NCBI GenBank assembly: GCA_027297745.1
Contig: JAPUHK010000024.1
Coordinates: forward strand, 994-64,993
DNA: 64,000 nt
Direction: 5' to 3'
From: Planctomycetota bacterium
GTDB taxonomy: Bacteria > Planctomycetota > PLA2
This document shows, in pieces, positions 24,786 through 33,474 of the stretch (the stretch's first letter is position 1; each line of letters begins with the position of its first letter). The translations under genes and the position numbers were made by a program. The notes under the pieces were generated by a model. It searched no databases and was not told where the DNA came from. It saw only the letters and a list, made by a program, of their open reading frames with translations.

Positions 24786-25087
24786 GCATCAGTCTCTACC
24801 ACTACCTCGGCCTCGGCGCAGCGCTGTTCGCGATCGGCGTGATCGGCGTGGTCACGCGCCGCAACGCGATCGGCCTGCTGATCGGCGTCGAGCTGATCCT
24901 CAACGCCGCCAACATCAACCTGGTCGGCTTCAGCCGTTTCAGCGGAAAGCTGGAGCCCCAGGTCTTCGCCCTGTTCGTCATCGTCCTGGCCGCCGCGGAG
25001 GCGGCTGTGGCCCTGGCCATCGTTCTGCAGCTGTTCGACAAGCGCAAGGACGTGGACGTGGACCGCGCCAGCGCGCTCAAGGGGTGA
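24782..25087 (+). CDS. nuoK: NADH-quinone oxidoreductase subunit K
   Basis: GTG start overlaps the nuoJ stop. GLLIGVELILNAANINLV...VLAAAEAAVALAIVL. Confidence 0.9.
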   Translation: MSISLYHYLGLGAALFAIGVIGVVTRRNAIGLLIGVELILNAANINLVGFSRFSGKLEPQVFALFVIVLAAAEAAVALAIVLQLFDKRKDVDVDRASALKG

Positions 25088-25097
25088 CGCCGAAGTC

Positions 25098-27056
25098 ATG
25101 ATGCACGCCCTTCCCTCCTACGCCGTCTGGATCGTGCTGGCGCCCGCGCTGGCCGCGCTCTTGCAGAACTTTTGCGGCAAGCTGCTGCCGCGCAAGGGCG
25201 ACTGGCTCGTCGTGGGCGGCATGGGCGTCTCGCTCGCGCTGTCGCTGATGGTGCTGATGGAGTGGAGGGCCCTCGATCCGGGCCACTACTTCGAAGGCAG
25301 CGTCACCTGGTTCCAGTTGACGGGCGGCATCTCGTTCTCCGTCGGCATCGTGATCGACGGCCTGACCGCGGCCATGCTGATCGTGGTCACGCTGGTCTCG
25401 CTGCTCGTGTTCGTGTTCTCGATGGGCTACATGAAGGGCGACCGGCACTACGACCGCTTCTTCTTCTGGCTCTCGTTCTTCAGCACCTCGATGCTGATCC
25501 TGGTGGTGGCCGACAACCTGCTGCTGCTGTTCGTCGGCTGGGAGCTGGTGGGGCTTTGCAGCTACAAGCTGATCGGCTTCTGGGGCCAGGACCTGGCCAA
25601 CGCGGAGGCGGCCAAGAAGGCCTTCATCACCACCCGCGTGGGCGACGTCGGGATGCTGATCGGCATCCTCATGATGTACAAGGCCTGCGGCACGCTCTCG
25701 TTGCAGGGCGTGTTCGCGCAGGTGCAGGCCGGAGCGATCCAGGGCAGCGCGCTGACCTGGGCCGGCATCGCGCTGTTCCTCGGCGCGGTCGGCAAGTCGG
25801 CGCAGTTCCCGCTGCACGTCTGGCTGCCGGACGCCATGGCGGGCCCGACGCCTGTCAGCGCGCTGATCCACGCGGCCACGATGGTGGCGGCGGGGGTCTA
25901 CTTCGCGGCGCGCATGTTCCCGATCTTCACGCCGCAGGCGCTGTACTTCATCGCCTGGACGGGCGGTGTGACCGCGCTGCTGGCGGCGCTCATCGCGGTC
26001 ACGCAGACGGACATAAAGAAGGTGCTGGCCTACTCCACGATCAGCCAGCTCGGCTACATGATCCTCGGCGTCGGCGTGGGCGCTCCGTGGGCGGCCATGT
26101 TCCACCTGTGCACGCACGCCATGTTCAAGGCCTGCCTGTTCCTCGGCTCCGGCTCCGTGATCCACGCCATGCATCACACCCAGGAGCTCGAGGACATGGG
26201 CGGCCTGCGCAAGAAGATGCCGGTCACCTTCTGGACCTTCGTGGTCAGCACGCTCGCGCTGGCCGGCATCCCCTTGTTCAGCGGCTTCATGTCGAAGGAC
26301 GCAATCCTGTTCGAGGCGTTGCACAGCGGGCAGACGGCGCTGTTCGCGATCGGGCTCGGTGCCGCCTTCCTGACCGCTTTCTACATGACGCGCATGCTGT
26401 GGCTGTGCTTCATGGGCGAGCCGCGCAACCGGGAGAAGCACGACCACGCGCACGAGTCGCCCGTGAGCATGACGCTGCCGCTGGTCGTGCTGGCACTGCT
26501 CTCGATCGGGATCTTCTGGGGCGGGTTCGCGGACGACTATTTCACGACGCCCGCCTACCACGCGGACTACCCGCAGACGGCGGAGGTGGCGGCGGCTTAT
26601 GCGCCAGCGGGAGAGGTGCGCGCTCATCCACACCACCCGGTGTGGTTCCTGCTGCTGGCGAGCGCGATGGGTCTCGGCGGCATCGCGCTGGGCATCGCGC
26701 TGTTCCGCTCCGGCAAGCGGGACCAGGACACGGTGCTCTTGCCCGAAGGGCTGCACCGCACGGCGAAGAACAAGTACTACCTCGACGACCTCTACCTGGG
26801 CTGGGGCTTCGTCGGGCTCGGTGACACGCTCAGCCGTTGGAGCCGCGTGGCCGACGACCGCGCGGTCGACGGCGCGGTCAACGGTGTCGGCAGCGCGGGC
26901 GTGACCGTCGCCGAGATCAGCGGGGACGCGGACCAGGTCATCGTGGACGGCGCTGTCAACCTGGTCGCGGACGCCACGGACGCGGTAGGCGGCGTGGCCA
27001 GTAGCGCGCAGACGGGGCGCATTCGGAACTACCTGGGAGCAGCACGACGGTCGTGA
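25098..27056 (+). CDS. nuoL: NADH-quinone oxidoreductase subunit L
   Basis: FVGWELVGLCSY...GKSAQFPLHVWLPDAMAGPTPVSALIHAATMVAAG. Confidence 0.95.
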   Translation: MMHALPSYAVWIVLAPALAALLQNFCGKLLPRKGDWLVVGGMGVSLALSLMVLMEWRALDPGHYFEGSVTWFQLTGGISFSVGIVIDGLTAAMLIVVTLVSLLVFVFSMGYMKGDRHYDRFFFWLSFFSTSMLILVVADNLLLLFVGWELVGLCSYKLIGFWGQDLANAEAAKKAFITTRVGDVGMLIGILMMYKACGTLSLQGVFAQVQAGAIQGSALTWAGIALFLGAVGKSAQFPLHVWLPDAMAGPTPVSALIHAATMVAAGVYFAARMFPIFTPQALYFIAWTGGVTALLAALIAVTQTDIKKVLAYSTISQLGYMILGVGVGAPWAAMFHLCTHAMFKACLFLGSGSVIHAMHHTQELEDMGGLRKKMPVTFWTFVVSTLALAGIPLFSGFMSKDAILFEALHSGQTALFAIGLGAAFLTAFYMTRMLWLCFMGEPRNREKHDHAHESPVSMTLPLVVLALLSIGIFWGGFADDYFTTPAYHADYPQTAEVAAAYAPAGEVRAHPHHPVWFLLLASAMGLGGIALGIALFRSGKRDQDTVLLPEGLHRTAKNKYYLDDLYLGWGFVGLGDTLSRWSRVADDRAVDGAVNGVGSAGVTVAEISGDADQVIVDGAVNLVADATDAVGGVASSAQTGRIRNYLGAARRS

Positions 27057-27073
27057 TTCTGCTTTAGGAAACG

Positions 27074-28624
27074 ATGAACGAACTCACGTATGCGATCTTC
27101 CTCCCGCTGGTCGGGATGCTGGCGGTGCTCTTGACCAACAAGGAGAAGCCGCAGCAGGCGCGCGTGGTCGGCTTCCTGTTCACGCTCGTCACCTTCGGGC
27201 TGTGCACCCTGGTGGCGCTGCAGTGCTTCAACGCGGGCGACGTGGACGGCTACCACTACCGCGTCCAGGCAGTGTGGATCGACCTCGGCGGCAGCTTCCA
27301 GGTGCACTACTCGATCGGCGTGGACGGCCTCAGCGGCATGCTGATCTTCCTGACGGGGCTGCTGGGCGTGTGCGCCGCGCTGGCGTCGTGGAACATCAAG
27401 CAGGGCACGCGCGGCTACTGGGCCATGTTCCTGCTCTTGCACACGGGCGTGATCGGCACCTTCGCCTCGCTGGACCTGTTCCTGTTCTACGTCTTCTGGG
27501 AGATCGTGCTCCTGCCGATGTACTTCCTGATCGGCGTGTGGGGCGGCCCGCGGCGCAGGTACGCGGCGATCAAGTTCTTCCTGTACACGCTGTTCGGCTC
27601 GGTCTTCCTGCTGGCCGGCATCCTGGTCACCTACTTCGCGCTGACGGCCACGGGGTCCGGCTTCGCCGGCAACCCATTCAGCATTCCAGAGATCACGGCC
27701 TACGCGAGGGTGACGGACAACATCATGGCGCCCTTCGGCGAGAGCGCGCACACGATCGCGACGCTCGTGTTCTGGGGCCTGTTCGTCGCCTTCGCGATCA
27801 AGGTGCCAGTCTTCCCGTTCCACACGTGGTTGCCGGACGCCCACGTCGAGGCGCCGACGCCCATCTCCGTGATCCTGGCGGGCATCCTGCTGAAGCTCGG
27901 CGCGTACGGCATGCTGCGCATCGGGTTCCCGTTCTTCCCAAAGATCTTGCACGAGATGGCCTTCTATCTCGGCGTGCTGGGAATGATCAACATCATCTAC
28001 GGCGCGCTGGTGGCCATGGCGCAGACCGACTTCAAGCGGCTCGTGGCCTACTCGTCGGTCTCGCACATGGGCTTCGTCATCCTCGGCTTCGCCGCGATGA
28101 CGCCGGAATCGCTGAACGGCGCGATCCTGATGATGTTCAACCACGGCACGATCAGCGGCCTGTTGTTCCTGGTGGTGGGCGTCGTGTACGACCGCGCGCA
28201 TCACCGCGACCTGGGACGTTTCGGCGGGCTGATGTGGAACATGCCGATCTACGCCGCAATCAGCGGCGTGGCAATCTTCGCCTCGCTCGGCCTGCCCGGC
28301 TTGAGCGGTTTCATCGGCGAGATACTGACCCTCCTCGGGTCCTTCAAGACGACCTTCTACGAGCACGCCGGCCTGATCACGGTCGTGTGCACGATCGGCC
28401 TGGTGTTGACCGCGGCCTACTACCTGCGGGCGCTGCAGCGCGTCTTTTTGGGCGAGACCAACCCTGAGTGCGAGTCGTTCCCCGACGTCGACACGCGCGA
28501 GATCGGCTCGATGGTGCCGCTCCTGGTGCCGACGATCGTCTTCGGCATCTATCCCGCGCCGCTGATCGACCTGATCCAGGGTCCCGTGAGTAGCCTCGTG
28601 CTGATGGTGAAGAGTCTGGGCTGA
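27074..28624 (+). CDS. nuoM: NADH-quinone oxidoreductase subunit M
   Basis: FVFWEIVLLPMYFLIGVWGG...FPFHTWLPDAHVEAPTPISVILAGILLKLG. Confidence 0.95.
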   Translation: MNELTYAIFLPLVGMLAVLLTNKEKPQQARVVGFLFTLVTFGLCTLVALQCFNAGDVDGYHYRVQAVWIDLGGSFQVHYSIGVDGLSGMLIFLTGLLGVCAALASWNIKQGTRGYWAMFLLLHTGVIGTFASLDLFLFYVFWEIVLLPMYFLIGVWGGPRRRYAAIKFFLYTLFGSVFLLAGILVTYFALTATGSGFAGNPFSIPEITAYARVTDNIMAPFGESAHTIATLVFWGLFVAFAIKVPVFPFHTWLPDAHVEAPTPISVILAGILLKLGAYGMLRIGFPFFPKILHEMAFYLGVLGMINIIYGALVAMAQTDFKRLVAYSSVSHMGFVILGFAAMTPESLNGAILMMFNHGTISGLLFLVVGVVYDRAHHRDLGRFGGLMWNMPIYAAISGVAIFASLGLPGLSGFIGEILTLLGSFKTTFYEHAGLITVVCTIGLVLTAAYYLRALQRVFLGETNPECESFPDVDTREIGSMVPLLVPTIVFGIYPAPLIDLIQGPVSSLVLMVKSLG

Positions 28625-30183
28625 TGCTGCTGGGTGCGGAAGCCTTTATCCCCGACGTCTCGGCGTTGTTCAGCCACTTCGGCGCGGAAGTCGTGCTGGC
28701 GTTGGGGATCCCCTTGCTCCTCGTGGCGGACCTGTTCACCCGCCGCAACAAGGAGTCGGTCACCGGCGCTCTCTCGCTGGTGCTGTTGACCGTCGCCCTC
28801 GTGCTCGGGCTCTGGCAGGACTCCTCCAGCAGCGTCGGTCTGACGAGCCTCTTGCGCGCGGACGGGCTGGCCAAGGGCTTCCGCGTGATCGCGCTGGCCA
28901 GCGGCGTGATCACCGCGGTGGCAGCACTGCGCGGCGGTGACGCGGTGCGCCACCGGACGGAGTTCTTCGTGCTCCTGATGGGGGCCGTACTCGGCGCCTG
29001 CCTCACGGCGGCCGCGAACGAGATGGCCATGCTGTACCTCGCGATCGAGACGCTGTCGATCGCCGGGTACCTGCTGGCCGGCTTCAAGCGGCGCGATCCG
29101 CAGGGCTCGGAGGCCGCGCTGAAGTACATCATCTTCGGCGCCATCTCCTCCGGCATGATGCTGTACGGCCTGACCTTGCTGTACGGCTTCGGCGGGACGA
29201 GCCTCTTGACCACGCCGCCGGGCGCCCCTGAAGGCACCGTTTCGCTGCAGTCCTATCTGCAAGAGAACGCCTCGGCGCTCGCCATGAAGCCCGCCTTCAT
29301 CGCCGCCGTGGTGCTGGTGTTCGCGGGCCTGGCCTACAAGATCGCCGCGGCGCCGTTCCATTTCTGGTGCCCCGACGTCTACCAGGGCGCGCCCACCTCG
29401 GTGGCGGGTTTCCTGGCCGTTGCCGGAAAGGGCGCCGGGCTGGCCGCCTTCATCCGCATCGTGCAGGCCGTCACCGGCGGCGCCGGCGACCACATCACGG
29501 ACCTCTTGGCCAGGCACAACGACGTGATCCGCACGGTGCTGATCGGCATGTCGATCGCGACCATGACGATCGGGAACGTAGCCGCGCTGCGCCAGCGCAA
29601 CGCCAAGCGGATTCTGGCCTACAGCGCCATCGCGCACGCGGGCTACATCCTGATGGGTCTCACGGTCACCAGCCGCGCGGGCGCGACGGCCATGCTCTTC
29701 TACATGGGCGTCTACGTGTTCATGACGTTCGGCGCCTTCTTCATGGTGGCGCTCGTGGAGCGCGAAAAGGGTAGCTGCGACCTGTCGGCCTTCGAGGGGC
29801 TCGGGTTCCGTGCGCCCTTCTTCGCCGTGTCCTTCGCGATCGTGCTGATCAGCCTGACGGGCCTGCCGCCGACCGGCGGCTTTTGGGCCAAGGTGTTCCT
29901 GTTCGAGGGCGTGTTCAGCTACGGCGGCGCGCACTCCTCGAGCCTGTACCTGTGGTTCGGCGTGATCGGCCTGCTCAACGGGGTCATCTCGCTGGTCTAC
30001 TACGCCCGCTTCCTGAAGGCCATGTACCTGGCCGACCCGGAGCACAACACCGGCTCCGGGCTGGAGCTCGGCCTGGCGGACAAGAGCATGGTGTTCGCCA
30101 TGACGCTGCCGCAGCTGGTGCTCGGCGTGATGTTCGCTGGGCTCTACGAGACGGCGCAGCTTCTGGTCGTGGATCTCTTCTGA
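28624..30183 (+). CDS. nuoN: NADH-quinone oxidoreductase subunit N
   Basis: YLAIETLSIAGYLL...AAAPFHFWCPDVYQGAPTSVAGFLAV. Confidence 0.95.
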   Translation: MLLGAEAFIPDVSALFSHFGAEVVLALGIPLLLVADLFTRRNKESVTGALSLVLLTVALVLGLWQDSSSSVGLTSLLRADGLAKGFRVIALASGVITAVAALRGGDAVRHRTEFFVLLMGAVLGACLTAAANEMAMLYLAIETLSIAGYLLAGFKRRDPQGSEAALKYIIFGAISSGMMLYGLTLLYGFGGTSLLTTPPGAPEGTVSLQSYLQENASALAMKPAFIAAVVLVFAGLAYKIAAAPFHFWCPDVYQGAPTSVAGFLAVAGKGAGLAAFIRIVQAVTGGAGDHITDLLARHNDVIRTVLIGMSIATMTIGNVAALRQRNAKRILAYSAIAHAGYILMGLTVTSRAGATAMLFYMGVYVFMTFGAFFMVALVEREKGSCDLSAFEGLGFRAPFFAVSFAIVLISLTGLPPTGGFWAKVFLFEGVFSYGGAHSSSLYLWFGVIGLLNGVISLVYYARFLKAMYLADPEHNTGSGLELGLADKSMVFAMTLPQLVLGVMFAGLYETAQLLVVDLF

Positions 30184-30674
30184 TGAATCGCGAGGCACGC
30201 ATCACCTACTTGAACCGCGTACTGGCGGCGACGTCGAACTCGCTCTTGCAGTACATCTCTGTGGCCACGCCGTACGTGCCGCCCGAGTGCGAGGACCAGA
30301 TGGAAGAGGTCACGCGCCTGATCGACGAGGAAGCGCAGCAGGTCGCGCGCATCGTGGATCTGATCGAGGAGCGCGACGGCGTGCCGTCGGCGGGCATCTT
30401 CCCGTTCTGGAACGTCGACCTGAACTACCTCGACTTCCGCTTCCTGGCGCGCTTCGCCGCACAGAAGCAGGGCGAGATCGTGGACGGGCTCGAGCGCGAC
30501 CTCGACAACCTGCGCGGCGACCCCGACGCCTTCACCGCGGTGGGGGAGATCCTGAAAGAGAAGCGCGCGCACCTCGACGTGCTGCGCTCGTTCGCCGGCA
30601 TGGATCAGCCGGAACCCGAAGCCGCCGCGGAAGAAGCTCCCGCCGAAGCGCCCGCCGAACCCGCAGGCGAGTAG
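30183..30674 (+). CDS. Uncharacterised 163-aa helical protein translationally coupled to nuoN
   Basis: The ATG shares one base with the nuoN TGA (TGATG). MNREARITYLNRVLAATSNSLLQYISVATPYV... is followed by an acidic A/E/P tail. No TM helix or signal peptide is visible. Confidence 0.7.
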   Translation: MNREARITYLNRVLAATSNSLLQYISVATPYVPPECEDQMEEVTRLIDEEAQQVARIVDLIEERDGVPSAGIFPFWNVDLNYLDFRFLARFAAQKQGEIVDGLERDLDNLRGDPDAFTAVGEILKEKRAHLDVLRSFAGMDQPEPEAAAEEAPAEAPAEPAGE

Positions 30675-30682
30675 CCGAGCTC

Positions 30683-32320
30683 CTAGCCTGACCCTGGCGG
30701 CTTGATGCCGGCCCACCGCTCCAGGTAGGGCAGCACGACCTCACTCACCTCTTCCCGCGGGCGGCTGCCGAGGTAGCGTGCCGCCTCGCGCGAGCCCGCC
30801 TCGGGGTCGATCTGCACGAGCGCGCCGATGGCGAAGAACTGATCCCCGGCCCTCGGATGGGCGAGGAAGTCGAGCAGGATCCGTTCCGCCCTTGGGCCGC
30901 CCATCTTGCCCAGCGCGCCCAGAAGATACGGCCGCACGCCGTCCCACCCGGGGCGCAGCAGCTTGTCCTCGAAGTGAGGCGCGCCCGCGGGCTCCCGCAG
31001 TTCCCCAAGCGCGCCGGCGGCGCTATAGAAGAGACCGGCGTCCTCCGACTCCGCGACGAGGTCGAGCAGGTAGCGGCGCGTCTCCGGCGTGTCCGCAGCG
31101 CCCATGGCGCGCAGGATCGTGTAGCGCGCGGAGCGGGGGAATGCCGGATCACCGGCCGCCGTGATGAGGTGCGCCTCGTACCCGGGCGACCAGGCCTCGC
31201 GCAGGAGGCGCTCGAACCACGCGCCTTGCCTGCCTCCGCGCAGCAAGGCCAGCAGCGCGAGCAAGCCCTGCTCGCCGTGGCCGTTCAGCTTCTCGATGGC
31301 TTCGAGCGCCTCCTCGTCCAGCTTGTCTTGCTGATGCTGGTTGCGCACGGCCTCCTCTGCCTCGAGCGCTGCCTGGAGCGCCGGCGCGGGGACCTTCAAG
31401 GCCGCCGCGGCGCGCTGAAGCTTCGAGTCCCGCGTGCGCGGGCGGCCGCGCTGCTTGGCCGCTTGCTGTTTTGCAACCGGCCTCTCAGCCGAGGCGGCAC
31501 GCGCGGCGGCGAGCTGCTCGACTAGAACACGTTCGCGCTCCCGCGCCGCCTCCAGTTCCCGGTGCAGGTCAGGGCCGTGCGGCGCGCGCGCGACCCGCTG
31601 CGCCGGCTCCGCGTCCGACCTTCCGGGCAACGCGGCGCCAATGCCCACGCCGACGATTCCCGTGGCGGCGACGGCGGCGGTAACGATGGCGGCGGTCTTG
31701 TACTTCATGACTTCTCCAAGGATGAGCTGGGACGACGCGTGCGCGCAGTCGGCCAGGAACCAGGGCACCGCGAGCAGGGGAAGGGCGAGCCAGGGTGCGA
31801 GCGAGCCGAGCAGGAGCGTGCGCGCACGCTGGAGCCGCTTCTTGACGGCGGACTGCGTAATGCCGAGCAGCCCGGCTACCTCGTTTGTCGTGAGCCCTTC
31901 GAAGTAGTGCAGCACGACCGGGTCGCGGTAGCCTGCCGCAAGCCGGTCCACGCCGTCGCGCAGGCGACGGAACTCCTCGGCGCGCATGGCCGCCGCCGCG
32001 GGCGTCGGCGCCTGCGGCAAGTGTGCGAGCCGCCGGGAAAGCTCGTGTTGCCGCCGGTGTTGCGCCTTGTGCCGGTACGCGATGCGCACGACCGCCGTGA
32101 CGAGCCAGGGCATGACCGGGGCGTCGAGCGGCCCCCCGCGTTTGTGCAGTAGCGAGAGGTAGGCGGTGTGGACCGCGTCCTCAGCCTCGTCCGGCGAGCC
32201 GATGCGGCGCGCCACCGCGAGCAGCTTCGGCCGCGTCCGGCGCACGACCTCCTCGGCCGCCTCCTCGTCCGCGTCCCGCAGGTAGCGGTCGACGAGATCT
32301 TCCAGCGTCTCCCTGGCCAT
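30683..32320 (-). CDS. ECF sigma factor fused in-frame to hydrophobic segments, a coiled-coil and a HEAT-like repeat region
   Basis: Sigma region 2 (DEAEDAVHTAYLSLLHKR...WLVTAVVRIAYRH) and region 4 (YFEGLTTNEVAGLLGITQSAVKKRLQRARTLL) are present. Next come APWLALPLLAVPWFLA and TAAIVTAAVAATGIVGVGIGAAL, then ~300 aa with HEAT-like repeats. No stop codon occurs anywhere in between. Confidence 0.75.
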   Translation of the reverse strand: MARETLEDLVDRYLRDADEEAAEEVVRRTRPKLLAVARRIGSPDEAEDAVHTAYLSLLHKRGGPLDAPVMPWLVTAVVRIAYRHKAQHRRQHELSRRLAHLPQAPTPAAAAMRAEEFRRLRDGVDRLAAGYRDPVVLHYFEGLTTNEVAGLLGITQSAVKKRLQRARTLLLGSLAPWLALPLLAVPWFLADCAHASSQLILGEVMKYKTAAIVTAAVAATGIVGVGIGAALPGRSDAEPAQRVARAPHGPDLHRELEAARERERVLVEQLAAARAASAERPVAKQQAAKQRGRPRTRDSKLQRAAAALKVPAPALQAALEAEEAVRNQHQQDKLDEEALEAIEKLNGHGEQGLLALLALLRGGRQGAWFERLLREAWSPGYEAHLITAAGDPAFPRSARYTILRAMGAADTPETRRYLLDLVAESEDAGLFYSAAGALGELREPAGAPHFEDKLLRPGWDGVRPYLLGALGKMGGPRAERILLDFLAHPRAGDQFFAIGALVQIDPEAGSREAARYLGSRPREEVSEVVLPYLERWAGIKPPGSG

Positions 32321-32418
32321 GGCACCCCCATAGTGCCTGCCGCGGGCGCGCGGTGACACACGTTAAGGGTCGCCTCCCCGGGCCGGACGCCGCGAGGCGA
32401 AGTCCAAGGGGCTAGGAG

Positions 32419-33474
32419 CTACGCGTCCCAGGTCAGGTTGACGGTGCCGGCGGATGCGGAGGCGAGCTCGTCGAGGCGCGCCATCATCTTGTCCGCGCAG
32501 GCGGCGAAGGCCTTGGCTGGGGCGCCGTCGGGCTGCGAGAACACGATCGGCGTGCCCTCGTCGCCGCTGGGCGTGATCGACGTGTCGATCGGAAAGCTGC
32601 CGAGCAGCGGCAAGTTGAACTTCTTGGCTGCCTTCTCCCCCGCGCCCTGCAGGAAGATGTGCGTCTCGTGGCCGCACTCGGGGCAGACGAAGCCGGCCAT
32701 GTTCTCGATCACGCCCGTCACCGGCACGCGCACCGACTGGAACATCTCGACCGCCTTCTCGACGTCGAGCAGCGCCACGTCCTGCGGCGTCGTGACCACC
32801 AACGCGCCCGACAGCGGCACGGTCTGCGCCAGGCTCAAGACCGCGTCACCGGTGCCCGGCGGCAGGTCGACCACAAGCAGGTCGAGCTCGCCCCACGCGA
32901 CGTTGGTCAACAGTTGCGTGACCATGCGCCCGACCAGTGGGCCGCGCCAGACGACGGCTTGCTGGCCCGGAGGCGTCAGGAAGGCGATCGAGATCACCTT
33001 CAGGCCGTGCGCGTTGGCGGGGATCACGCGCCGCTGCTCGTCGGCGGCCGCGCGGTGGTTGCGCGTGCCCGTCATGATGGCCGCGCTCGGCCCGTGGATG
33101 TCCGCGTCCAAGAGGCCGATCTTGAGCCCCTTGCGCACGAGCGCCGCGGCCAGGTTGACGGCGACGGTGGACTTGCCCACGCCGCCCTTGCCGCTGCCCA
33201 CGGCCAGAATGCGCTTCACGCCCTCGAGCGGCGCCGGTCCCTGCGGAGCGTCGGCCTGCGCCGGCGCCTGGAACGCTACGAACACTTCTTTCACACCGTC
33301 CAGCGTGCCGACGCGCCGCTTCACCTCTTCGGCGAAGCCCGGCTTCTGTCCCATGGGGACGTCGGTCACGACGCTGACCGTGATCCGGCCCTCCGATTCC
33401 TTGATCTCGGGGACCTGCTCGGGCTTGAGGATGTCCGCCAGCGTGGAGCGGACCTGCTCGATGCGCGTCTTCAT
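32419..33474 (-). CDS. apbC: Mrp/ApbC/NBP35-family ATP-binding Fe-S cluster carrier
   Basis: Internal ATG gives MKTRIEQV. It has an N-terminal DUF59-like part, the deviant Walker A GSGKGGVGKST and CPECGHE. Confidence 0.9.
   Translation of the reverse strand: MKTRIEQVRSTLADILKPEQVPEIKESEGRITVSVVTDVPMGQKPGFAEEVKRRVGTLDGVKEVFVAFQAPAQADAPQGPAPLEGVKRILAVGSGKGGVGKSTVAVNLAAALVRKGLKIGLLDADIHGPSAAIMTGTRNHRAAADEQRRVIPANAHGLKVISIAFLTPPGQQAVVWRGPLVGRMVTQLLTNVAWGELDLLVVDLPPGTGDAVLSLAQTVPLSGALVVTTPQDVALLDVEKAVEMFQSVRVPVTGVIENMAGFVCPECGHETHIFLQGAGEKAAKKFNLPLLGSFPIDTSITPSGDEGTPIVFSQPDGAPAKAFAACADKMMARLDELASASAGTVNLTWDA

Follow-up and report, generated by a model that had tools for sequence, protein, structure and literature searches.

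An ECF sigma factor fused in frame to a predicted membrane helix and a HEAT-like domain in uncultured Planctomycetota, with a probable internal translation start

In this work, we found that a 64,000-nucleotide stretch of a Planctomycetota contig (JAPUHK010000024.1; hereafter the window) carries a gene in which an ECF sigma factor continues, in one reading frame, into a hydrophobic junction helix, a predicted transmembrane (TM) helix, a helical stalk, and a HEAT-like alpha-solenoid (Table 1). Comparison with homologous sequences confirmed that this fusion is genuine, conserved, and under selection, and is not the product of a missed stop codon or frameshift. Judging from conserved features of the nucleotide sequence, a second, sigma-less isoform that consists of the TM helix, stalk, and HEAT-like domain is probably co-produced from the same open reading frame (ORF).

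Table 1. Features of the fused ECF sigma factor gene and its upstream region (positions in the window; residues counted from the ATG at 32320).
Feature	Position	Strand	Basis or remark
-35-like hexamer TGTCAC	32353..32358	minus	family-specific promoter-like element
-10-like hexamer CACTAT	32330..32335	minus	17 nt after TGTCAC, 9 nt before the ATG at 32320
Full-length ORF, 545 aa + stop	30683..32320	minus	ECF sigma, junction helix, TM, stalk, HEAT-like solenoid; frame kept in homologs
Sigma region 2, residues 26-90	32051..32245	minus	Pfam Sigma70_r2, TIGR02937, fold matches to sigmaE/AlgU/SigW
Sigma region 4, residues 119-169	31814..31966	minus	Pfam Sigma70_r4_2, E 6.8e-13
Pro/Trp-rich hydrophobic junction helix, residues 169-191, LLLGSLAPWLALPLLAVPWFLAD	31748..31816	minus	conservation and hydrophobicity
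Internal Shine-Dalgarno-like GGAG (codons CTT GGA GAA)	31714..31717	minus	5 nt ahead of the M205 codon
Conserved in-frame internal start codon M205 (MKYK)	31706..31708	minus	start-codon conservation, unstructured mRNA
Predicted sigma-less isoform, 341 aa (MKYK, TM, stalk, HEAT-like), nested in frame	30683..31708	minus	predicted from sequence
TM helix, residues 209-231	31628..31696	minus	above TM threshold in 31/31 members
Long helical stalk, residues 251-278	31487..31570	minus	AlphaFold helix H251-278, pLDDT about 62-79
HEAT-like alpha-solenoid, residues 296-540, ~15 helices	30701..31435	minus	AlphaFold, Foldseek, HEAT_2

The same single frame and architecture were present in homologs at 94, 89, 69, 53, 50, 37, and 36% identity, which came from independent metagenome assemblies in ENA, Logan, JGI, and NCBI. 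An earlier note on this DNA had described an uninterrupted frame from the sigma part to the C-terminus and had named a stop or frameshift in orthologs as the result that would speak against it; we looked for such an interruption and found none. About 30 further representatives of 500-610 aa match beginning near residue 180-330, with the sigma domain verified only in P0004, P0016, and P0017. As far as sampled here, the gene family was seen only in uncultured Planctomycetota, and one MAG contains three paralogs. The sigma-junction-TM module is common to paralogs with unrelated C-termini, namely, HEAT-like domains, TPR-like domains, CarboxypepD_reg/Big_1/PEGA arrays, or domains of unknown type. 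A query of region 4, junction, and TM against an index of 5.8 billion proteins returned one family fragment and otherwise generic region 4 sequences from Lachnospiraceae ECFs, and was uninformative on family size. A pattern scan of metagenome contigs yielded just two or three more family loci, because generic ECF motifs prevailed in the back-translated patterns.

The gene is located on the minus strand as a single ORF (30683..32359) that encodes 558 aa when counted from its first GTG, or 545 aa with the N-terminus MARETLEDL when counted from the ATG at 32320. The GTG at 32359 is unlikely to be the true start because it overlaps the -35-like hexamer and because orthologs begin with MARET or VARET. 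The coordinates 30683-32320 given in the earlier note were correct, and the strand, which it had left out, is added here. The GC3 is 0.78-0.94 in each 50-codon block, such that the entire frame looks coding.

The N-terminal part belongs to the ECF (group 4) class of the sigma-70 family, with regions 2 and 4 present and regions 1.1 and 3 absent. The general ECF model TIGR02937 (sigma70-ECF) matched residues 20-170 with 68.6 bits, compared with its cutoff of 42.9, and Pfam matches in this part included r4_2, r4, Sigma70_ECF, and r2, with no Pfam match to r3 or r1 in the window protein. The assignment of regions 2 and 4 made in the earlier note is thus on solid ground. Foldseek matched the sigma part to sigmaE, AlgU, SigW, and CnrH, including the structures of sigmaE/RseA, AlgU/MucA, and SigW/RsiW. 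The NCBIfam models of ECF subfamilies, including the Planctomycetaceae-specific TIGR02984, were all far under their cutoffs for the window protein. Beyond region 4, the protein extends in frame for 375 aa, and this extension is kept in relatives at 94-36% identity. With a regulatory C-terminal extension defined as more than 50 aa in frame past region 4 and conserved in relatives, these comparisons place the window protein among the ECF sigma factors that carry one.

The largest part of the extension is the C-terminal solenoid, which AlphaFold modeled as an all-alpha repeat of paired antiparallel helices over residues 296-540 (pLDDT 93-97). Its best PDB matches in Foldseek were alphaRep, importin-alpha, and CpcE/F, with E values of 7e-4 and upward and TM-scores up to 0.6-0.77 (target); alphaRep is a design based on HEAT-like repeats. 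The Pfam model HEAT_2 scored 25.7 bits in the window protein, just below the gathering cutoff of 27.7, and precomputed PF13646 matches are present in several orthologs. The HEAT-like fold proposed in the earlier note is consistent with these results, while the size is about 245 aa rather than the ~300 aa proposed. The predicted long helix ahead of the solenoid (residues 251-278), which the earlier note called a coiled-coil, may plausibly form one.

The evidence for a second product lies between the sigma part and the TM helix. The earlier note had seen the ATG of M205 (MKYK; nt 31708..31706) and the lack of a stop in the frame upstream of it, and both are present, but its decision to set this codon aside calls for correction, given the conserved Shine-Dalgarno (SD), start-codon, and open-mRNA signatures found there. 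Position 205 is ATG in 14 and GTG in five of 21 loci, and any other codon coincides with loss of the entire motif. Wherever Val replaces Met, in five loci, the codon is GTG (P = 0.006), and Leu or Ile never occur. An SD core (GGAG or GGAGG) is present in 14/17 loci and the full GGAGG in 12/17 (Poisson-binomial P = 2.9e-10 against the background of each ORF), whereas the background of SD at internal ATG/GTG codons in the window is 11%. The first Gly codon of the motif is the rare GGA in 14/17 loci, compared with 12% among the 792 Gly-Gly dipeptides that these loci encode (P = 8e-11); the latter proportion rules out a codon-pair artefact for GGA GGN. The spacing from GGAGG to the start codon is fixed at 4 or 7 nt among loci. 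Two further loci fit the pattern, and in two others the start codon and SD were lost together (Fisher P = 0.048). No other 43-nt stretch of the window ORF is as weakly structured as the mRNA around M205 (MFE -4.4, compared with a mean of -15.4), and openness at the internal start extends to 18 loci (mean z 1.24, P = 1.2e-6). This and the other P values for the internal start overstate independence, since the loci are phylogenetically related, even though most pairs share only 30-60% protein identity. The combination of conserved SD, ATG/GTG codon, and unstructured mRNA suggests that the sigma-less isoform is probably made.

An alternative is that only the full-length protein is made, and that the internal GGAGG/ATG acts as an SD-like elongation pause or is a preserved relic of a ribosome-binding site (RBS). 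Intragenic SD-like motifs have been suggested to act as pause sites, and motifs that lie in frame can be retained. A pause before the TM segment could aid folding of region 4 or membrane targeting. A relic would be the RBS of a once-separate downstream gene, and downstream-gene capture, which would leave such a relic, has been proposed for planctomycete ECF extensions (Pinto & da Fonseca; PMC7671368). The use of SD at bona fide starts in the window is also not clearly high: the tightly coupled nuoM and nuoN starts have no SD core, and the candidate gene starts in the window are a poor gauge, with several per frame and chance matches likely. The SD at the internal start of the window gene is itself the weaker 4-nt GGAG. 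However, synonymous decay of a relic would be expected at 30-60% protein identity, yet the rare GGA is kept in the loci compared. For a pause, no start codon would be required, whereas position 205 shows the strict ATG/GTG preference described above, including among Val codons. The fixed spacing, the local lack of structure as in initiation regions, and the joint loss of SD and start codon also argue against a full-length product only, which we regard as doubtful.

The position of the sensor relative to the membrane depends on which hydrophobic segments span it. Both segments described in the earlier note exist, but only the second behaves as a TM helix across the family: TM-level hydrophobicity was reached by segment 1 (residues 169-191) in 3/31 members and by segment 2 (residues 209-231) in 31/31. 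Segment 1 contains Arg, His, or Gln in many members and is ~7 residues shorter in locus L083. In the 20-sequence alignment, its residues P186, W187, and D191 are each at least 90% conserved. We consider the junction helix to be probably interfacial or docking rather than membrane-spanning; the AlphaFold confidence at the junction is low (pLDDT 34-53). Segment 2 has a pattern of small residues, with G221 at least 90% conserved and G224 invariant. With segment 2 as the sole consistent TM helix, the HEAT-like domain is probably an extracytoplasmic sensor and the TM helix oriented N-in/C-out. The loop ahead of the TM helix is net positive in nearly all members. Two other observations point to C-out, namely, the typically extracytoplasmic beta-sandwich domains that follow the same TM helix in paralogs, and the genuine stand-alone homologs that consist of a short N-terminus, a TM helix, and the same domain.

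If both segments instead spanned the membrane as a hairpin, the stalk and HEAT-like domain would be cytoplasmic and could serve as an intramolecular anti-sigma that binds regions 2 and 4, with regulation by conformation or partner binding as in extensions of the ECF41/ECF42 type. HEAT and TPR repeats usually reside in the cytoplasm, which counts against an extracytoplasmic placement. Segment 1 of the window protein itself is just hydrophobic enough to span the membrane (KD 1.71), and for this protein and several HEAT-type members the charges on the two sides of the TM helix are tied. A cytoplasmic TPR extension also has a precedent in ECF42 (PMC7826278; PMC8999054). Against the hairpin, segment 1 falls under TM hydrophobicity in 28/31 members, with the polar residues and the shortening noted above, and the conserved P-W...D pattern sets it apart from a generic TM helix. 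The CarboxypepD_reg/Big_1/PEGA arrays behind the same junction in paralogs, and the stand-alone homologs with only a few residues ahead of the TM helix, also disfavor it. We consider the hairpin unlikely.

Upstream of the gene, TGTCAC-N17-CACTAT appears to be a promoter-like motif of ECF type that is specific to this family. The strict bipartite motif has nine matches in 288 kb x 2 strands, compared with 0.3 expected, and 9/9 are directly 5' of family genes. If CACTAT is truly the -10 element, the mRNA would be nearly leaderless. Given the purine-rich GGAGG-like runs between motif and start in several loci, the motif could alternatively be a 5'-UTR or RBS element that has been conserved. A scan of 30400..32700 for sigma-70-type promoters gave no match, and a terminator scan of the same region gave two terminator-like hairpins, at chance level and both within the ORF.

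The window neighbors of the gene encode an Mrp/NUBPL ATPase, an MBL-fold protein, a Kelch/Big_5 protein, a ferritin-like ORF, and NuoN. There is no flanking gene of anti-sigma type in the window and there are no anti-sigma Pfam families in the related loci, although a novel, unrecognized type would escape such a search. The earlier note had proposed a built-in regulatory domain rather than a separate anti-sigma partner. This may be half true: no anti-sigma gene is adjacent, but a sigma-less partner is probably produced from the same frame.

Taken as a whole, the model that we favor, with somewhat better than even confidence, is a one-component, membrane-tethered ECF sigma factor that has an extracytoplasmic HEAT-like sensor, is released by proteolysis, and is accompanied by the internal-start isoform. 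Both the regulatory role of the extension and the proteolytic mode of activation are proposed by analogy only. The tether would keep the sigma factor inactive until a signal leads to proteolysis at or in the membrane, and a sigma domain of roughly 20 kDa would be freed, as in IutY. The freed sigma factor may then drive its own ECF-type promoter, TGTCAC-N17-CACTAT. The sigma-less isoform may pair with the full-length protein through the TM helix and stalk, or compete with it, and so set a threshold for sigma release. A more specific version, which we offer only tentatively, is a two-in-one gene. The near-leaderless start would give the tethered fusion and the SD-led internal start the sigma-less sensor, such that the two products would rely on different initiation mechanisms, and their ratio would set the amount of releasable sigma factor, for instance through TM/stalk heterodimers or competition for the site-1 protease. 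The cassette of sigma, junction, SD, start, and TM would then be the unit that planctomycetes recombined with many sensor domains. If true, sigma/anti-sigma stoichiometry would be built into a single ORF in a way previously undescribed.

Compared with this release model, it is rather improbable that the sigma factor is active while tethered and recruits RNA polymerase to the membrane like regulators of the ToxR/CadC type, with the sensor modulating it without proteolytic release. Only about 38 residues separate region 4 from the TM helix, with no match to a zinc finger or other anti-sigma domain (ASD). Without a recognizable ASD before the TM helix, tethering alone may not block core binding. 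However, judging from the substrate preferences of S2P proteases, the conserved small residues in the TM helix and the abundance of helix-breaking Pro in the junction favor intramembrane cleavage. Also, IutY, the only characterized fusion of sigma, TM, and periplasmic domain, requires cleavage by Prc and RseP to be active (PMC5411451).

Two annotated proteins, P0005 and P0030, start exactly at the internal Met and appear to consist of the C-terminal part only. These are a deletion and a contig truncation, respectively: the P0005 contig (L001) has lost ~140 sigma codons and keeps sigma residues 1-39 before it jumps to the junction, and P0030 (L167) is a truncated fusion with the frame open up to the contig edge. 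Genuine stand-alone relatives of the C-terminal module also exist; they have unrelated N-termini and non-sigma neighbors, and the TM-stalk-HEAT homologs P0043 (which follows a SIR2 gene) and P0066 had no linkage to sigma genes. Although such proteins might suggest that assembly or sequencing errors joined a sigma gene to a membrane HEAT gene, these explanations of them, the identical architecture across independent assemblies at 94 to 36% identity, and the coding GC3 that is continuous over the junction make an artefact highly implausible.

Fused, membrane-tethered ECFs are already known, namely, IutY, ECF52, and planctomycete ECFs with extensions, and the architecture reported here is not new in kind. 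By analogy, IutY of Pseudomonas putida (ECF243, FecI-like) is the best functional model. It is a sigma/anti-sigma hybrid in which sequential cleavage by Prc and RseP frees the sigma factor (PMC5411451; PMC8999054), and, as is probable for the window protein, it combines a cytosolic ECF sigma, a single TM helix, and a periplasmic regulatory domain in one polypeptide without a separate anti-sigma. However, IutY has in the periplasm an anti-sigma domain of FecR type that is coupled with a TonB-dependent receptor, whereas the window protein has a HEAT-like solenoid and no FecR or FecI family match in Pfam or NCBIfam. Also, no internal initiation site has been reported for IutY, in contrast to the conserved internal site and Pro/Trp junction helix of the window family. 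In the actinobacterial ECF48, ECF52, and ECF53 (e.g., SCO4117), the sigma domain is followed by one or two TM helices and then by a domain outside the cytoplasm, and their activation by proteolysis of the extension has been predicted (PMC8999054). Between region 4 and the TM helix, they have an anti-sigma domain of the zinc-finger (ZAS-like) type, whereas HxxxCxxC and zf-HC2 are absent from the short linker of the window protein, in which the sole Cys (C192) is not conserved. The phylum and outer domains also differ.

Closer in phylogeny, planctomycete ECFs of the ECF57 and ECF01-Gob types have a sigma2-sigma4 core and unrelated, often large repeat-domain extensions (Pinto & da Fonseca, 2020; PMC7671368; PMC7826278). 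They share with the window family the phylum, the multiple paralogs per genome, and the modularity. ECF57 has WD40-like extensions and two conserved cysteines that link sigma2 and sigma4 (PMC8999054); by this published description only, the window family differs in its HEAT-like, TPR-like, or beta-sandwich extensions. We found no conserved Cys column in the 20-sequence family alignment and no WD40 match in Pfam for the window protein and paralogs. In the published planctomycete model, only sigma2-sigma4 duplicates (PMC7671368), whereas in the window family the conserved module reaches through the junction helix, internal SD and start, and TM helix.

Canonical pairs of the sigmaE-RseA type, with a separate single-pass anti-sigma factor, resemble the model favored here in that the membrane retains an ECF sigma under the control of a domain on its outer side, and, if the internal start is used, in that the gene also gives a separate single-pass membrane partner. 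However, the tether of the window protein is covalent and lacks a class I anti-sigma domain. The isoform, if made, would have a cytoplasmic part of four residues and no sigma-binding domain, unlike RseA-type proteins. In-frame internal initiation that yields N-terminally truncated bacterial proteoforms is well recognized and has reportedly been mapped genome-wide by retapamulin ribosome profiling. The window gene resembles such genes in having an SD and start codon inside an ORF and a second predicted product that lacks the N-terminal domain; by sequence, its SD at functional spacing, start codon, and accessible mRNA match what is expected of in-frame internal initiation. A literature search for internal initiation in ECF sigma fusions or sigma/anti-sigma genes found no report and only irrelevant mentions.

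To our knowledge, the C-terminal extensions of dozens of planctomycete ECF sigma factors are unexplained, and none of these factors has been characterized. The family described here is now precisely defined by a conserved junction helix, a single TM helix with conserved glycines, and interchangeable outer domains, and its family-specific promoter-like motif is usable for regulon prediction. The prediction of two proteins from one frame is concrete and cheaply testable. If the internal start is unused, the gene would simply add one more ordinary case to the class of fused ECFs. If it is real, gene callers that assign one product per gene would mis-describe the whole class, and one-component tethered sigma factors with swappable sensors would be attractive parts for synthetic signaling. 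In that case, the "gene sequestration" model for the origin of these extensions would also have to include a mobile cassette of sigma, junction, RBS, and TM.

The earlier note had placed an ECF sigma factor, hydrophobic segments, and a HEAT-like domain in one reading frame, and this is borne out by a single unbroken ORF, profile matches, and structural comparisons (see table). Because third-position GC is 0.78-0.94 in all 50-codon blocks, the ORF is coding throughout, and its ATG start agrees with ortholog N-termini. The sigma part also matches Pfam Sigma70_r4_2 (E = 6.8e-13), Sigma70_r2, and Sigma70_ECF, and Foldseek aligned the N-terminus with sigmaE/RseA, AlgU/MucA, and SigW/RsiW structures. 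For the repeat domain, Foldseek returned alphaRep (a design based on HEAT-like repeats), importin-alpha, and the CpcE/F lyase, while Pfam HEAT_2 scored 25.7 bits, slightly under its threshold of 27.7. The domain order proposed earlier stands; the sizes, including that of the repeat domain, need small corrections.

Coordinates of the window gene, its neighbors, and the strict copies of the upstream element (L numbers, DNA loci of relatives)
Feature	Position	Strand	Remark
ORF from first GTG	30683..32359	-	558 aa
Gene from ATG (MARETLEDL...)	30683..32320	-	545 aa
ECF sigma factor	residues 20-170	-	TIGR02937, 68.6 bits (cutoff 42.9)
First hydrophobic stretch (junction)	residues 169-191	-
Second hydrophobic stretch (TM)	residues 209-231	-
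Long helix	residues 251-278	-	predicted
All-alpha repeat domain	residues 296-540	-	AlphaFold pLDDT 93-97
Internal start, M205	31708..31706	-	in frame
Predicted second product	31708..30683	-	341 aa
Upstream element, window	TGTCAC 32358..32353; CACTAT 32335..32330	-	strict copy, 32330-32358; ATG at 32320
Strict copies, other loci	L001 374-402; L003 1002-1030; L006 7929-7957; L007 4843-4871; L008 7042-7070; L009 1570-1598; L083 3963-3992; L164 4965-4993
Mrp/NUBPL P-loop ATPase	32422..33474	-	upstream
MBL-fold protein; Kelch/Big_5 protein		-	upstream
Convergent ORF, weakly ferritin-like	30189-30685 region, end ~30674		Pfam E 9e-4, under cutoff
nuoL, nuoM, nuoN-like genes	24897-30183	+	downstream

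Full-length homologs from independent ENA, Logan, and JGI assemblies share this architecture at 94, 89, 69, 53, 50, 37, and 36% identity, so no stop codon or frameshift splits the sigma factor from the C-terminal part. Two homologs that start at the internal Met were considered as counter-evidence and rejected. P0030 begins exactly there, but its contig is only 1.3 kb and the frame is open to the edge (...LAPWIAYPLLAVPWFLAD...GGTMQLK). On the P0005 contig (L001 1-1621; GCA_044240405.1, JAZHCC011229054.1), sigma residues 1-39 are encoded in a different frame, and the sequence passes from there straight to the junction. The loss amounts to ~140 codons and changes the frame; the junction is kept, as is a C-terminal ORF that is still intact, at 70% identity. 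The copy may be misassembled, or it may have arisen by natural deletion, in which case only the product of the internal start could still be expressed. Upstream of it, on the opposite strand, there appears to be a tRNA-like sequence. Against the homologs listed, an artefactual fusion is hardly credible, and the window gene is genuine and conserved. An exhaustive HMMER search with the C-terminal 341 residues as sole query yielded 239 representatives, of which ~30 are 500-610 aa with the match beginning near residue 180-330, the layout expected of fusions; among these, the sigma domain was confirmed in P0004, P0016, and P0017 only. About ten representatives have a third architecture; they are ~700-aa proteins in which the solenoid spans residues ~430-720.

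The close genomic relatives are all uncultured Planctomycetota MAGs, one of which has three paralogs. In an alignment of 20 sequences, the sigma core is conserved and is followed by the junction pattern R-x-LL-x-G-x-L-x-PW...PLL..PW-x-L-x-D ... GG-x-M-K-x-K and then the TM; P186, W187, D191, M205, and G221 are conserved in at least 90% and G224 is invariant. The sequences after the TM fall into unrelated classes, namely, the HEAT-like domain, a TPR-like domain (P0007-P0013), a ~380-aa domain without Pfam match (P0018-P0026), and CarboxypepD_reg, Big_1, and PEGA arrays (L003, L010, and L011). Since these classes are unrelated, the conserved unit that is reused runs from the sigma factor through the junction helix and the TM to a short stalk, and the outer domain is swappable. 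Other solenoid genes occur nearby in two loci: a 733-aa protein with Sigma70_r2/r4 and HEAT_2 matches lies close to a family member (L166 11218-11485), and two HEAT_2 proteins (464 and 276 aa) adjoin the P0016 gene (L002 6921-9148).

Gene neighborhoods are not conserved among relatives, and no known anti-sigma family was found beside the window gene or in the relatives' loci examined. The convergent ferritin-like ORF ends ~10 nt from the sigma-gene stop codon (30683-30685) with no terminator-like hairpin between them, and their transcripts would be expected to have overlapping 3' ends. At L165 (315-7740), the HEAT-type P0017 gene neighbors a CarboxypepD_reg protein, and after it come a Ser/Thr kinase-TPR protein of 991 aa and a Peptidase_Mx gene, a hint that a kinase or protease might be involved at this locus only.

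The earlier note had set the internal ATG aside, yet the M205 position carries three independent hallmarks of translation initiation at the DNA level. First, across 17 loci, GGA GGN coding of the Gly-Gly ahead of this position (Gly-Glu in the window) places GGAGG in 12 and a GGAG/GAGG core in 14, spaced 4 or 7 nt from the start codon; in the window, GGAG is 5 nt away. This Shine-Dalgarno (SD) enrichment is significant against each ORF's own background (Poisson-binomial P = 2.9e-10), for in the window background just 11% of in-frame ATG/GTG codons at internal positions are preceded by such a core, and GGA is the first Gly codon in 14/17 cases vs. 12% of the 792 Gly-Gly dipeptides in the same loci (P = 8e-11). 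Second, of 21 loci, 19 have ATG or GTG at this position; Val is always GTG (5/5, P = 0.006), and Leu or Ile was found in none of the 21. Start codon and SD are both absent in L163 and L164 (association across loci, Fisher P = 0.048). Third, the 43 nt around M205 have less structure than any other stretch of the window ORF (MFE -4.4 vs. a mean of -15.4 kcal/mol; GC 0.51 vs. 0.72), and the low structure holds across 18 loci (mean z 1.24, P = 1.2e-6). The loci behind these statistics are related, yet mostly 30-60% identical. No GGAG/GAGG core precedes the starts of nuoM and nuoN, which are tightly coupled, so SD use is not universal in this genome. Alongside these hallmarks, it seems rather unlikely that the signals mark a pause site or a relic with a single product being made. 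We predict from the sequence a second product consisting of MKYK, TM, stalk, and HEAT-like domain; this predicted protein is signal-anchored and resembles the stand-alone relatives. In the P0024 and P0026 subfamily that lost the start and SD (L163 5001-8097 and L164 5001-8035), a conserved ~400-aa gene without Pfam match lies directly downstream; its start overlaps the stop of the family gene in L164, and in L163 the two genes are 44 nt apart. It may be a separate partner that replaces the nested isoform.

A family-specific bipartite DNA element, TG(T/A)(C/A)AC(C/G)-N16-17-CAC(T/C)AT or, more broadly, TG(T/A)(C/A)AC-N16-18-CAC(T/C)A(T/C), is conserved 6-9 nt ahead of the primary start. The strict pattern occurs nine times in 288 kb on both strands (shuffles predict 0.3), each time directly 5' of a family gene on the same strand, and there is no second copy in the 64-kb window. 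Relaxed forms (GGAACC, or TGAAAC with a variant -10) were seen in most other loci, and the 'HYGG' N-termini in several homolog gene calls are spurious in-frame translations of the element. Its geometry and 'AAC'-type -35 resemble ECF promoters such as that of sigmaW (TGAAAC-N16-CGTA). The element is probably an ECF-type autoregulatory promoter that would leave the mRNA almost leaderless (0-3 nt), and this reading disfavors the GTG at 32359 as a start. Alternatively, it may be a conserved 5'-UTR or RBS element, a reading kept alive by purine-rich GGAGG-like runs between motif and start in several loci.

Both hydrophobic segments described earlier exist, but the status of the first had to be corrected: it reaches the Kyte-Doolittle TM threshold in 3 of 31 members, compared with 31/31 for the second. 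It often contains Arg, His, or Gln, is ~7 residues shorter in L083, and would be an interfacial or docking helix. In nearly all members, the pre-TM loop is net positive, with hardly any acidic residues. By a hand count over 30 members (L011 left out), the N-terminal TM flank is more positive in 19, tied in 6 (including the window protein), and reversed in 5. The beta-sandwich domains of paralogs are typical extracytoplasmic modules, and stand-alone homologs (P0036, P0039, P0043, P0047, P0060, P0066, P0098, and P0134) have few residues ahead of the TM, with no adjoining sigma gene in those with DNA sequence. Based on segment hydrophobicity, flank charges, paralog domains, and stand-alone homologs, we favor with fair confidence a tether that crosses the membrane once, N-in/C-out, and holds the HEAT-like domain outside the cytoplasm, although AlphaFold models the junction at low confidence (pLDDT 34-53). 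A hairpin, with the solenoid cytoplasmic and autoinhibitory, would have both segments cross the membrane and is unlikely. On the P0047 contig (JGI 3300042731), the stand-alone TM-stalk-HEAT gene begins 1 nt past the end of a partial gene (252 aa) of the same orientation; should the latter encode a sigma factor, the pair would represent the fusion in naturally split form.

ECF sigma factors with a fused transmembrane regulatory extension are already a known general kind, given the published examples of IutY, ECF48/52/53, and planctomycete extension ECFs. Among modes of ECF regulation, C-terminal extensions rank second in frequency and occur in 19 groups (PMC7826278). In Pseudomonas putida, IutY joins a cytosolic sigma domain through a single TM to a FecR-like domain in the periplasm, and the sigma domain is freed by Prc and RseP (PMC5411451), while actinobacterial ECF48/52/53 combine a zinc-finger anti-sigma domain with TM helices (PMC8999054). 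Pinto and da Fonseca described a Planctomycetes ECF clade with a conserved sigma2-sigma4 core on unrelated extensions and proposed that the core was duplicated and then captured neighboring sequence (PMC7671368). ECF57 averages 5.3 copies per planctomycete genome (PMC7826278) and is described as having WD40-like repeats and two conserved cysteines (PMC8999054); the window family differs in lacking WD40 matches and conserved cysteines.

By analogy with IutY, the sigma factor would be inactive while tethered to an extracytoplasmic sensor domain, and regulated proteolysis would free it; the Pro-rich junction and Gly-rich TM are compatible with intramembrane cleavage. That the sigma factor works while still tethered appears improbable. 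Once freed, it may autoregulate its own gene, and the sigma-less isoform may pair or compete with the full-length protein, thereby tuning release. Our literature search found no report of a conserved cassette reaching through the junction helix and TM, or of a conserved internal initiation site embedded in such a cassette. For this planctomycete family, well defined in the present analysis and experimentally untouched, our work adds evidence for a nested second product and a probable promoter motif.
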